DNA of 64,000 bases, taken from the NCBI RefSeq assembly GCF_988243305.1, contig NZ_OZ547136.1; one strand, written 5' to 3'. Position numbers and translations under genes: made by a program. A model generated the notes under the pieces. The model saw only the letters and a list, made by a program, of their open reading frames with translations. It searched no databases and was not told the origin of the DNA. Positions 1 through 37,156 of this stretch are shown here, piece by piece; position 1 is the first letter of the stretch; the number at the start of each line of letters is the position of its first letter.

Positions 1-19
1 ACTACCATTTGTTCTTTTT

Positions 20-733
20 TTAAGCAGTCATCTGATGATATTTTTCCCTGAAGGCTGCCGAGGAGATATTCCCCAGACGAGAGTGACGACGCTGACGATT
101 GTAGAAAATCTCAATGTATTCCCGTATTACTGAGATGGCTTCATCCCGGTTATTAAAACGATAGTGGCTCAGGCTCTCATTTTTCAGCGTTCCCCAGAAG
201 CTTTCCATCGGAGCGTTGTCGTAACAGTTACCTTTACGCGACATTGATGTTTTCAGACCAAACTGCTCCTGTATGACCCGGTAATCGTATGCGCAGTACT
301 GTGAACCTCGATCAGAGTGATGGATTAGCCCGGCAGGTGGGCGCTGGCTCCTGAGCGCCATAAACAGGGCTTTACCTGTCAGCTCTTTTGTCATGTGCTC
401 TCCCATGGCGTAGCCGACAATTTCGCACGTATAAACATCTTTGATGCCAGCGAGGTACAACCATCCCTCCTGTGTGGCAACATACGTCAGGTCCGCCACC
501 CAGACCTGATTTGGTGCTGTAGGAGCGAACGTCTGGTTCAGCAGATTTGGCGCAACTGGCAGATTGTGGTTCGAGTTCGTAGTCGCTCTGAACTTGCGTT
601 TCTGCTTACAGCGTAGCCTTAGCTCCTTACGAAGACGTGCCAGTCGGTCACGACCAACGATGATGCCATTCTCTGCCAGCTCCGTCTGGAGCCGCCGGGT
701 TCCATATGTTTCGCGAGTGCGGATATGTGCCAC
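20..733 (-). CDS. IS3-family transposase OrfB (DDE integrase-core domain); the element is truncated on its orfA side by the adjacent IS1
   Basis: 237-aa ORF with IS3-family OrfB hallmarks (HHSDRGSQY, NAPMESFWGTLK, YNRQRRHSRLG); no intact orfA upstream; IS1 terminus begins 70 bp away. Confidence 0.8.
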   Translation of the reverse strand: MAHIRTRETYGTRRLQTELAENGIIVGRDRLARLRKELRLRCKQKRKFRATTNSNHNLPVAPNLLNQTFAPTAPNQVWVADLTYVATQEGWLYLAGIKDVYTCEIVGYAMGEHMTKELTGKALFMALRSQRPPAGLIHHSDRGSQYCAYDYRVIQEQFGLKTSMSRKGNCYDNAPMESFWGTLKNESLSHYRFNNRDEAISVIREYIEIFYNRQRRHSRLGNISSAAFREKYHQMTA

Positions 734-818
734 CTTAATCTCCAGTTTTAGCCGCTCATCACTTTAGTTTTCTGTCTGAGGGTTCATGCTGTACCCAGTT
801 GTAGGTGATGACTCCAAC

Positions 819-1322
819 TTACTGATAGTGTTTTATGTTCAGATAATGCCCGATGACCTTGTCATGCAGCTCCACCGATTTTGAGAACGACAGTGACTTC
901 CGTCCCAGCCTTGCCAGATGTTGTCTCAGATTCAGATTATGTCGCTCAATGCGCTGAGTGTAACGCTTGCTGATAACGTGCAGCTTTCCCTTCAGGCGTG
1001 ATTCATACAGCGGCCAGCCATCCGTCATCCATACCACGACCTCAAAGGCCGACAGCAGGCTCAGAAGACGCTCCAGTGTGGCCAGAGTGCGTTCACCGAA
1101 GACGTGCGCCACAACCGTCCTCCGTATCCTGTCATACGCGTAAAACAGCCAGCGCTGACGTGATTTAGCACCGACGTAGCCCCACTGTTCGTCCATTTCA
1201 GCGCAGACAATCACATCACTGCCCGGTTGTATGCGCGAGGTTACCGACTGCGGCCTGAGTTTTTTAAGTGACGTAAAACCGTGTTGAGGCCAACGCCCAT
1301 AATGCGTGCACTGGCGCGACAT
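819..1322 (-). CDS. insB: IS1 transposase InsB
   Basis: 167-aa ORF matching IS1 InsB as recalled ([92 protein letters not shown]). Confidence 0.9.
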
Positions 1323-1516
1323 CCGACGCCATTCATGGCCATATCAATGATTTTCTGGTGCTTACCGGGCTGAGAGGCGGTGTAAGTGAACTGTAGTTGC
1401 CATGTTTTACGGCAAGGAGAGCAGAGATAGCGCTGATGTCCGGCAGTGCTTTTGCCGTTACGCACCACGCCTTCAGTAGCGGAGCAGGAAGGACATCTGA
1501 TGGAAATGGAAGCCAC
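1241..1516 (-). CDS. insA: IS1 InsA
   Basis: 91-aa [46 protein letters not shown], the expected InsA. Confidence 0.9.
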
Positions 1517-1753
1517 GCAAGCACCTTAAAATCACCATCATACACTAAATCAGTAAGTTGGCAGCATTACCAGAAAATGATAAGGTAAACATTGAAAAGC
1601 AGCCGACTGATGACTGTTTTTTATAGTTGCATTTTTATTTTTTGTTATTTTCATTTATATTCCCTTACTTGTCGTTTAAAATTCTTCTATATAACAGGAA
1701 GAGGTAACCATAGAATGAACGTTTATTTTCCTGTATCAGAACAGCCATAACTT

Positions 1754-2224
1754 TTATTTTATAGTTGTTATCAGTGAATGAATGCAACCTAATAGAACAA
1801 TGAGGAAAACAATGGAGAAAAAGCGACGGACCGGACGCCATAGTTCATATTCTCGTGTATCAGCCTCACGTATCAACCTTTCTGAAATGGTTTCGGTTTC
1901 TTTTCCTCGCACCAGAATATGTCTGTAATATTTCCTCATGACATATACCGAAAACTGAAACCAGATTAATATGGATGGACACACAACACATAAACTTCTG
2001 ATGATATCACCCGGGAAAGTATCTTGGGCGGGTAAAAGAAAGTCATATACTCTGGATAAAATCATCATCGAGATAAATGAGACGCCAGCACCTATCCAGT
2101 ATTCGATATGAGAAGATGCTGCATTATATGCGTCAGTAAAATTTTTCTTTCTTAATGAAGGTGGAAGTGCTGAAAGTTCAGGAATACGTTTTCTTGTCCA
2201 GTATATTTTCATATAGTAACTCAT
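1754..2224 (-). CDS. hypothetical membrane protein in AT-rich island DNA
   Basis: 156-aa ORF with several hydrophobic stretches; no family recognised. Confidence 0.3.
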   Translation of the reverse strand: MSYYMKIYWTRKRIPELSALPPSLRKKNFTDAYNAASSHIEYWIGAGVSFISMMILSRVYDFLLPAQDTFPGDIIRSLCVVCPSILIWFQFSVYVMRKYYRHILVRGKETETISERLIREADTREYELWRPVRRFFSIVFLIVLLGCIHSLITTIK

Positions 2225-2669
2225 ATAAAAAGTGTTCTACTTTACTATGATGATGACGATTTATAAAAGGCTTATAATGACTACTTCTCCTTTCATTCTC
2301 GAATTTCACGATAATGATAGAGATAATCATTATCAATTGATAGTATCAGTAATTTTGACTTACATCACACTTTCATGGTTTAATCAGGTGATTGATTTAA
2401 TGAAAAGAGTGTGTTTGTGGATGTATTGTGTATATGTCTTACCGGGCATCTGTTCTTACATTAATTAATATATTGCTATTTAAGTATTGGTAGTATTGTC
2501 AGTAACATTCTTTTGGTTAATTTAGTTATTATTCCTCACTGATTAATTGTCCTTCCGTTCTTATTGTTTGTAACTTGTGTTTGTATCGTACCTTTCAGGT
2601 GTTGATGCGCGCTTTACTGTGTCTGCACCGGCTTGACAAAATTCAACAGGGGTTGAAAAGGAACATTTC

Positions 2670-3179
2670 GTGCAAATAACCGAAGCCTTAATTTCAGAGC
2701 CGGGGGAAATCCGGCGTTTTGTTCAGCAGGCGGTGGACCACTGGCCAAATCTGTTGGCATTTCACTTCACGCTCTATTCGGCAGAAGGAATCTATGGTCA
2801 ACAGATTCAGACATTTTGTAGTTCCTTTCACCGACGGGTACACGAACGTATTACGGAGCATAATCACACGGTCAGCCCATCAGCGCCGGTGGTATTACGC
2901 TGGTTGCGGGAACAACATGAAGGAGCACAGATACGATGTCTGTTGCTGCTCAGCCAGACGAGTATTTGCCATCCGCGAGTCGGCGTCATGGCTGATGAAG
3001 AATGTGCGCAACTGGTGGATTTACTGCAACAGACCTGGTCGGTGATAAGTGCTGGCGGACAATGCCGGGTGGAAAGATGTTTTCGGGTTGCCCGGCTTGG
3101 TTCATCAGGGCAATACGTGGCGTTAAAAACGGCTGTTCAGTCCTTTATGTCGCAGGTTATTGCAACAATCATCCGGTGA
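2670..3179 (+). CDS. hypothetical island protein
   Basis: 169-aa ORF with normal codon composition; may be the N-terminal part of a gene broken before ORF 3232..3891. Confidence 0.35.
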   Translation: MQITEALISEPGEIRRFVQQAVDHWPNLLAFHFTLYSAEGIYGQQIQTFCSSFHRRVHERITEHNHTVSPSAPVVLRWLREQHEGAQIRCLLLLSQTSICHPRVGVMADEECAQLVDLLQQTWSVISAGGQCRVERCFRVARLGSSGQYVALKTAVQSFMSQVIATIIR

Positions 3180-5051: not shown

Positions 5052-6185
5052 TTGACTGGAAAATTATGTTGCAGGAACGAGAGGACTGAGGAACAAAGCT
5101 TATTCCGGCGCTGTCCGTCCTTGCTGTCACTGACACTGATGTCTGCTTTATTATCGCCTTTATCTCTTCAGGCAGCGGATGTCCGGCGTAGCGGAGATGA
5201 AGCATTTATCATTCAGCAGCAGCGTCAGGAAGCCCTTGAGCAACAACTGACGCCTTCAGCCCCTGATGTTCGCCTTTCTGCACCTGGCTCTTTTGCCCAT
5301 AAGATTAATTTTCCTGTTGAAACGCCCTGTTTTCAGATTAAACAGACGGAACTGAAGGGGGCTGATGCGTTACCACACTGGCTGCCTTTACAAAAAATCG
5401 CCAACGGGGCGGTCGGGCATTGCCTGGGGGCGAAAGGAATTAATCTGCTGATGAGTACATTGCAGAACCGTCTGGTCGATCATGGTTATGTCACCACCCG
5501 TGTTCTGGCACCTTCGCAGGATTTAAAAAGCGGTATCCTCCGGCTGGTCATTATTCCCGGTGTTGTGCGACATGTGCGTCTGACACCGGACAGTGATGAC
5601 TATATTCAGTTGTATTCCTCATTCCCGGCACACGAAGGTTCTCTGCTGGATTTACGGGACATTGAGCAGGGGCTGGATTTAGGTAACAGCCGGATACAGG
5701 GACAACATACTGAGCTGAATGCAACCAGTGGAAATCTGTCTACACAGAATGCGCAACTGAGTGCCGGTACGCTTTCCGCCCGGACTGCCGGGCAGTTCAG
5801 CAGTAATGGCGGTACGATAAATGCCGACACACTGCAGATATCGGCACAAAGCCTGTCAAATCGTAAAGGCAGTCTGATTCAGACGGGAACAGGGGATTTT
5901 TCGCTGAGTCTGCCGGGAAGCGTGGATAACCGGGAAGGGCTGCTTGCGGCAAATGGCGCGGTGCGTCTGGATGCACTGAGCCTTGATAATCGCAAGGGGA
6001 AAGTGCAGGCGGAGCAGTCACCCTCCCTTCAGAAATCCCCGCCCACGTTTCTGAAACCGTTTGTGGCTGGTGTCTGTGCGGCATTGCTGGCGGTCAGCGT
6101 GGCTATTCCGGGATGGCAGTTTCTGACACAGCCATCACCGGAGGAGCAGCATTTTACCTGGGGGAATGGTTGTAAAAAGCAGTGA
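5052..6185 (+). pseudogene. Two-partner-secretion remnant: TpsB (CdiB/ShlB/FhaC-like) N-terminal POTRA-like segment fused in frame to a hemagglutinin-type repeat fragment (CdiA/TpsA-like); far shorter than an intact TpsB or TpsA
   Basis: N-terminal part resembles TpsB transporters ([27 protein letters not shown]); C-terminal part is Ser/Gly/Asn/Leu-rich repeat text typical of filamentous hemagglutinin/CdiA; 377 aa total. Confidence 0.5.
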
Positions 6186-37068: not shown

Positions 37069-37156
37069 TGGCGGTGAGGGGGGGATTCGAACCCCCGATA
37101 CGTTGCCGTATACACACTTTCCAGGCGTGCTCCTTCAGCCACTCGGACACCTCACC
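37069..37156 (-). tRNA. serX: tRNA-Ser (anticodon GGA), 88 nt with long variable arm and CCA end
   Basis: Reverse complement reads GGTGAGGTGTCCGAGTGGCTGAAGGAGCACGCCTGGAAAGTGTGTATACGGCAACGTATCGGGGGTTCGAATCCCCCCCTCACCGCCA. Confidence 0.95.

Follow-up and report, generated by a model that had tools for sequence, protein, structure and literature searches.

Several described systems resemble the locus analysed here. Nested deletions of the SRL, flanked by IS1, occur in the Shigella SRL pathogenicity island (AF326777). That island sits at the tRNA gene serX, as does the one described below, whose left-module genes, taken with the fec genes and the oxa-1-aadA1-IS1 integron that accompany them in strain 100416, match the published description (PMC8854971). 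Two further relatives are the EHEC serX island of the SpLE1/O-island type and the O104:H4 island that carries microcin H47 and iha. The closest parallel in terms of structure comes from the deletions associated with IS150 in the long-term evolution experiment with E. coli, where a complete insertion sequence has non-matching flanks, genes are cut on both sides, and one junction is common with relatives while the other differs (PMC11708052). Missing target duplications are conventionally explained either by recombination between two insertion sequences or by adjacent deletion (PMC11708052).

We analysed a stretch of 64,000 nucleotides, hereafter the window (RefSeq assembly GCF_988243305.1, contig NZ_OZ547136.1), which has at its left end an IS1 copy with all these properties of the IS150 deletions. 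It differs from the laboratory cases in lying in a natural island, in having three partners for each junction and in involving mosaics of two IS1 isoforms. The left module has the D-aspartate gene content of the SRL pathogenicity island. Yet, in strain 100416 this module lies beside fec and the oxa-1-aadA1-IS1 integron, whereas the window has no resistance integron there and its IS600 is cut and tied, through IS1, to a module of the EHEC SpLE1 type. The genes to the right of IS1 are 99.7% identical to those of the EHEC island, and the junction between IS1 and a gene for a CPBP/CAAX intramembrane protease is identical in both, but the other end of IS1 in EHEC adjoins what is left of a deleted microcin cluster, at its esterase/glycosyltransferase end. 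In O104:H4, unlike in the window, no IS1 breaks into the CPBP gene or the microcin cluster. The features on which the comparison rests are the following.

1-803, minus strand: inverted remnant of IS600 (IS3 family), element nt 439 to about 1240, with only an orfB pseudogene
765: 1-nt insertion in the orfB remnant relative to the reference IS600 (locus L002), giving a frameshift and a stop
795-803: 9-bp flank at the insB end of IS1, ccagttgta, the reverse complement of IS600 nt 447-439; junction J1
804-1571, minus strand: complete IS1, IS1F-like, 768 bp, with both inverted repeats
804-826, plus strand: IRR, the insB end of IS1, GGTGATGACTCCAACTTACTGAT, with G at element position 4 (window 807)
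1322-819, minus strand: insB' frame, open, 167 codons
1516-1241, minus strand: insA frame, open, 91 codons
1549-1571, minus strand: IRL, the insA end of IS1, GGTAATGCTGCCAACTTACTGAT, given as the reverse complement of 1549-1571
1572-1580: 9-bp flank at the insA end of IS1, agaaaatga; junction J2
1572-1654, minus strand: 5' end of the CPBP/CAAX intramembrane protease gene, 27 complete codons and 2 nt of codon 28
1754-2224, minus strand: gene for a 156-aa hypothetical membrane protein, the first intact gene of the right module
37069-37156: serX tRNA-Ser (GGA) gene, right end of the island

We hold with high confidence that the IS1 at 804-1571 marks an IS1-dependent rearrangement joint of some kind. 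Such a scar is ordinary: the class of mechanism is already known and nothing in the mechanism is new. It matters mainly for annotation and for the history of the island, and little beyond.

The element is an IS1 in every respect that defines the family: a length of about 768 bp, imperfect terminal repeats of about 23 bp, insA and insB' frames with an A6C motif for −1 frameshifting (ending at window 1265, element nt 307), and the expected domains. The insB' product, whose gene is identical in locus L005, matches the Pfam family DDE_Tnp_IS1, and the fused InsAB' product of related loci matches Zn_ribbon_InsA and HTH_Tnp_IS1. Its identity to copies annotated IS1F is 99.9%, and RefSeq labels its counterpart in strain 190693 (locus L001) an intact IS1F-family transposase. 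The initial annotation described it as complete, with both inverted repeats but no target duplication, and both statements survive inspection of the exact ends. No direct repeat of 2 nt or longer was found at the two boundaries, where ccagttgta faces agaaaatga, hence no duplication of 8-9 bp. Other insertion sequences scored with the identical boundary definition served as positive controls: CGTTTTCG is duplicated around an IS1F in locus L017, TATTAAAGC around an IS1A in L018 and TAAC around the complete IS629 at window 20633-21942. The lack of a duplication is thus real and not a boundary error. Within the window, the IRL has no other match and a search for a second IS1 carrying the matching flanks returned none.

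Judging from the sequence, this IS1 is no simple insertion; it is a joint uniting two unrelated pieces of DNA. A simple insertion into IS600 whose duplication has decayed, or a mis-join of the assembly at an IS1 repeat, is so improbable that we give it almost no weight. The DNA to the right of IS1 belongs to the CPBP gene, of which it forms the 5' end, and not to IS600, and it is contiguous with the island as in genomes free of IS1 at this place. As many as 70 independent complete genomes of E. coli, of diverse origin, contain the first 4 kb of the window at 99.6-100% identity, and since all of these carry the joint, it is no assembly artefact. Flank comparison, CPBP contiguity and genome survey together refute both variants.

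On the left, the neighbour had been called a truncated IS3-family element lacking orfA. The truncation is confirmed, but the element does not lie entirely in the window: its outer end is 24 nt before position 1, at 14977 in the near-identical locus L001, which we used as a proxy solely for these 24 nt and for the genes further left. Taken as a whole, the remnant corresponds to IS600 nt 439-1264 and is 99.5% identical to full-length copies (the reference in the alignment was the 1264-bp copy at L002 463-1726). It keeps the right inverted repeat, the tip of which falls just outside the window and is seen in L001, and it lacks nt 1-438 and with them the left repeat, the whole of orfA (nt 65-367), the region of frameshifting and the first part of orfB. 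The near-identity and the rve-type orfB (the same ORF matches Pfam rve/HTH_21 in L005) identify it as IS600, but it is not a complete mobile element. Of the copies checked, those in genomes of the window type (L001, L024, L026) have the insertion at window 765, and those in the O104:H4 type and in L022 and L023 lack it. Strain 190693 cannot stand for the window throughout, as the match holds for about the first 13.4 kb only.

A genome with the intact IS600, as the initial annotation had proposed to look for, does exist. Strain 100416 has a full-length copy at the same site on the transporter side (L016 12678-13938), followed by an lpxM-virK-capU remnant, IS1B and aadA1-oxa-1-intI1, with fec nearby. 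No 3-bp target duplication flanks this IS600 (ACC versus TTG), which suggests that it is probably recombinant as well. The IS600 of strain N427 (L025 4374-5620) has in common with that of strain 100416 only the lpxM-side flank. IS600 itself is probably a recombination seam in these islands. As the full-length copy lacks the 3-bp duplication, the sequence that originally followed IS600 cannot be fixed. We considered lpxM-virK-capU as the DNA lost from the window but did not accept this reading, which is unproven, given the missing duplication and the different left flank in N427.

On the right, IS1 is followed by a CPBP gene that L001 also annotates as truncated. The intact gene has 228 codons (L013 and L014), and its remainder is missing from the window. 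It lies at the end of the microcin H47/M cluster in ATCC 25922, strain 8178 and O104:H4, and in O104:H4 the CPBP sequence runs uninterrupted across the IS1 site, without IS1. In the O104:H4 strain C227-11 (L015 16866-17551) this IS1-free gene has an internal stop that splits it into ORFs of 89 and 137 aa, and in strain cM8a it is frameshifted. The gene seems to be decaying by different routes in several lineages. Beyond it, the right module contains the 156-aa gene, which we used as the anchor for comparisons, an ECs1377-family gene, a POTRA remnant, an AAA helicase, ibrA/ibrB and Ag43. The POTRA-domain gene (about 5139-6185 of the window) is a short leftover of a two-partner-secretion transporter; at the same place, the related genome L006 (compare 1-3086) has a full ShlB-type transporter, an HlyC-type acyltransferase and a filamentous haemagglutinin-type exoprotein of 3021 aa.

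The uninterrupted CPBP gene and the uninterrupted IS600 both exist elsewhere, hence DNA is missing on both sides of IS1. The loss comprises at least nt 1-438 of IS600 and codons 28/29-228 of the CPBP gene, which is cut inside codon 28. About 12 kb of the O104:H4 island, lying between the CPBP gene and the esterase and including mchF, an HlyD-family gene, mchB, mchI and related genes, are absent from the EHEC and window types, and the window type additionally lacks the part of the EHEC-type island from the glycosyltransferase to the integrase. Aligning the flanks to find the deleted segment, as had been advised, defines the minimum that was lost, but not what originally came after IS600. The proposal that island DNA had been removed is supported, DNA being missing on both sides. 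Instead of one island losing a piece, we find two island modules joined together.

Within the window, the island occupies the DNA from position 1 to about 37 kb, where serX lies. In strain 190693 it likewise ends at serX, with the integrase at the dgcT end, and downstream of serX related genomes continue with core chromosome (ghrA, csg, mdo, flg). The left module includes a LysR regulator annotated hypT. For the left flank, identity reaches 99.7-99.9% both with the O104:H4 type and with strain 100416. The right flank shows 99.7% identity with the EHEC type, as against only 96.6-98.3% with the O104:H4 version of these genes. Because the two flanks have different relatives, the comparison indicates that the island of the window is a hybrid, with an SRL-PAI-like module on the left and an EHEC SpLE1-like module on the right joined at IS1.

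We followed J1 (the junction of the IS600 remnant with the insB end of IS1) and J2 (that of the insA end with the CPBP remnant) among 5,426 complete E. coli genomes. With short junction-spanning queries, which make the counts approximate, J1 was found in about 211 genomes and J2 in about 574, mostly EHEC; only 70 combine the two as the window does. J2 is identical in O157:H7, O26, O111, O145 and others. In EHEC-type islands the other end of IS1 abuts TGAGAATAATACC..., the esterase/glycosyltransferase end of the deleted microcin region, and in UMNK88 a third sequence takes this place, at a site 62 bp past that of EHEC. J2 therefore has three different partners, the window type included. So has J1, which is identical in all of its contexts: the IS1 beside it is bounded at the far end by a truncated ibrB in O104:H4 strains and cM8a, and by an amino-acid antiporter/decarboxylase module in CUVET21-424 and 266917_2. 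No target duplication was seen in any of the J1 and J2 arrangements examined. These distributions indicate that J1 and J2 are products of separate events in different ancestors. They also uphold the class of event first suggested, adjacent deletion or recombination between IS1 copies, as each junction is found elsewhere with different partners.

One simple scheme would interconvert the window and O104:H4 arrangements by a single inversion at IS1. We rejected it: the CPBP gene is uninterrupted in O104:H4, ibrB is complete in a window-type genome, and the genes common to both diverge by 1.7-3.4%.

The IS1 copies themselves bear on how the joint arose. We scored them at 73 sites that separate IS1F-like from IS1B-like copies. 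UMNK88 (L011 6654-7421, CP002729) has a clean hybrid, IS1B-like at nt 1-424 and IS1F-like at nt 425-768. A B-like tract at nt 19-139 is found in the copies of O104:H4 and cM8a and also in those of 266917_2 and CUVET21-424, which have more B-like patches; in CUVET21-424 the tract reaches nt 196. In 51243816-SK1A, which has the window-type arrangement, the informative sites at nt 397-471 form a B-like patch, with an F-like site on either side, at 376 and at 476. The J1 and J2 copies of these genomes are thus mosaics with different breakpoints, in which one sees directly that IS1 copies have exchanged sequence at this locus. The window IS1 differs from the copy of the EHEC island at one of 768 nucleotides, element position 4 (window 807), with G instead of A. 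This G is common to all IS1 copies examined at J1, whichever of the three contexts they come from, and all other IS1 copies examined have A. The G is thus a marker linked to J1, and it is the single separating marker for an allele switch in the window IS1 relative to the EHEC copy.

Homologous recombination between two IS1 copies is the origin that we prefer for the joint, though we would put it no higher than an even chance. One copy would have been the IS1 that ends an SRL-PAI-like module consisting of the LysR regulator, an Asp/Glu racemase, a C4-dicarboxylate transporter and the IS600 remnant; the other, an IS1 that had entered the CPBP gene at codon 28, in a serX island of the EHEC SpLE1 type. 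A crossover between them would retain J1 from the first and J2 from the second, and would discard or exchange the DNA in between, including both original target duplications. Recombination is favoured because J1 and J2 have three partners each, because the flanks have different closest relatives and because mosaic IS1 copies in sister genomes show that such exchange takes place here. Two of its hallmarks, junctions that occur elsewhere with other partners and flanks with different nearest relatives, are present. From these data we infer a crossover between IS1 copies, as opposed to a deletion made by the transposase, and likewise the order of events.

The data favour recombination only modestly over a single adjacent deletion, by intramolecular transposition, starting from an IS1 already anchored at J2. 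We regard this deletion as a real but less probable origin, somewhat on the doubtful side. The insB end would have attacked IS600 between nt 438 and 439, deleting the intervening DNA and creating J1; the G at position 4 would have come later, and J1 would have spread to the O104:H4 and antiporter contexts by exchange between IS1 copies. With the J2 end fixed and the other end lying against three sequences according to lineage, the locus has the classical pattern of nested deletions, and the window IS1 shares 767 of its 768 nucleotides with the EHEC copy, as if the same copy had stayed put. A parallel series exists at another IS1, in the related SRL-like island, in strains 100416 (capU remnant, IS1B, aadA1) and N427 (lpxM remnant, IS1B, aadA1), in which the flank on the aadA1 side is fixed. 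Adjacent deletion also typically leaves no target duplication (PMC11708052). Yet, the two other J1 contexts have IS1B-like alleles next to J1 (nt 19-139), and an additional conversion would be needed to account for them. Moreover, in UMNK88 the junction on the variable side is the product of recombination, with a mosaic IS1, so that the variable ends at J2 are not all made by the transposase. Finally, the arrangement required before the deletion was not found: no genome turned up with an intact IS600 upstream of a J2-anchored IS1.

Recombination between IS1 copies faces difficulties of its own. As position 4 is the sole switch marker, a single crossover must fall within nt 4-19, with hardly any homology on one side. 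Later gene conversion, or a point mutation following adjacent deletion, would account for position 4 equally well. The IS1 mosaics alone do not fix the direction of descent among the three J1 contexts. Also against this route, neither the reciprocal junctions nor the intermediate that it predicts was found among complete E. coli. For the former, IS1 next to ccagttgta and the 5' part of IS600, and the 3' part of CPBP with agaaaatga next to IS1, a synthetic query gave only loose two-piece matches and no true junction in the 5,426 genomes. A deletion would leave no such junctions behind. One candidate, a K-12-like IS1F close to an IS600 fragment, proved to lie at an unrelated locus and to have an 8-bp duplication of its own. 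The intermediate, J1 with an IS1B-like copy and the aadA1 flank, was not found in complete E. coli; the search brought up the nested-deletion variant of N427 and the third J1 context.

IS1 is able to form cointegrates, and one might imagine that an IS1 on a circle carrying the IS600-remnant module entered the CPBP gene by intermolecular replicative transposition. One IS1 would then lie between donor and target DNA, the second IS1 and the remaining donor DNA having been lost later. The module behaves like a movable block in that its orientation relative to the integrase is opposite in the window and O104:H4 types, and the unit of regulator, racemase, transporter, IS600 remnant and IS1 is found twice in 266917_2, at two island positions. 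We nevertheless consider this origin improbable. J2 (about 574 genomes) is far commoner than J1 (about 211) and mostly occurs without it, which speaks for an independent existence of J2, and among the 5,426 complete E. coli no second IS1 with agaaaatga was found beside the 3' part of CPBP.

A related notion is that the D-aspartate module, from the LysR regulator to the terminal IS1, is a movable cassette, mobilised by IS1 through one-ended or cointegrate events and not by passive recombination. The terminal IS1 with G at position 4 joins this module to at least three island backbones. We think such a cassette unlikely, if a little less so than the cointegrate origin of the joint.

Of the two copies of the module in 266917_2, one (L026, 5104642-5128941) has the window-type connection to the CPBP remnant, and the other (L023, NZ_CP026723.1 4799400-4814367) is linked to the antiporter/decarboxylase module.

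The IS1 and IS600 copies are the seams along which these serX islands reshuffle. This is of use when reconstructing the evolution of these islands, e.g. the loss of the microcin cluster and the spread of the D-aspartate module, and when judging the structural variants that E. coli assemblies show at IS1.

Another insertion sequence has left its mark further along the island. The IS629-type element that served as a control is complete (1310 bp, ends TGAACCGCCCCGGG...) and lies in iucD of the aerobactin operon; it is lacking in CH4796, the closest genome in the database. The strain from which the window comes has thus probably lost the ability to make aerobactin. Two IS629-type fragments (13132-14171 and 25365-25664), which make up the 300-nt direct-repeat family of the window, bracket a shiF-like MFS gene and iucABCD-iutA (about 14.5-25.1 kb).
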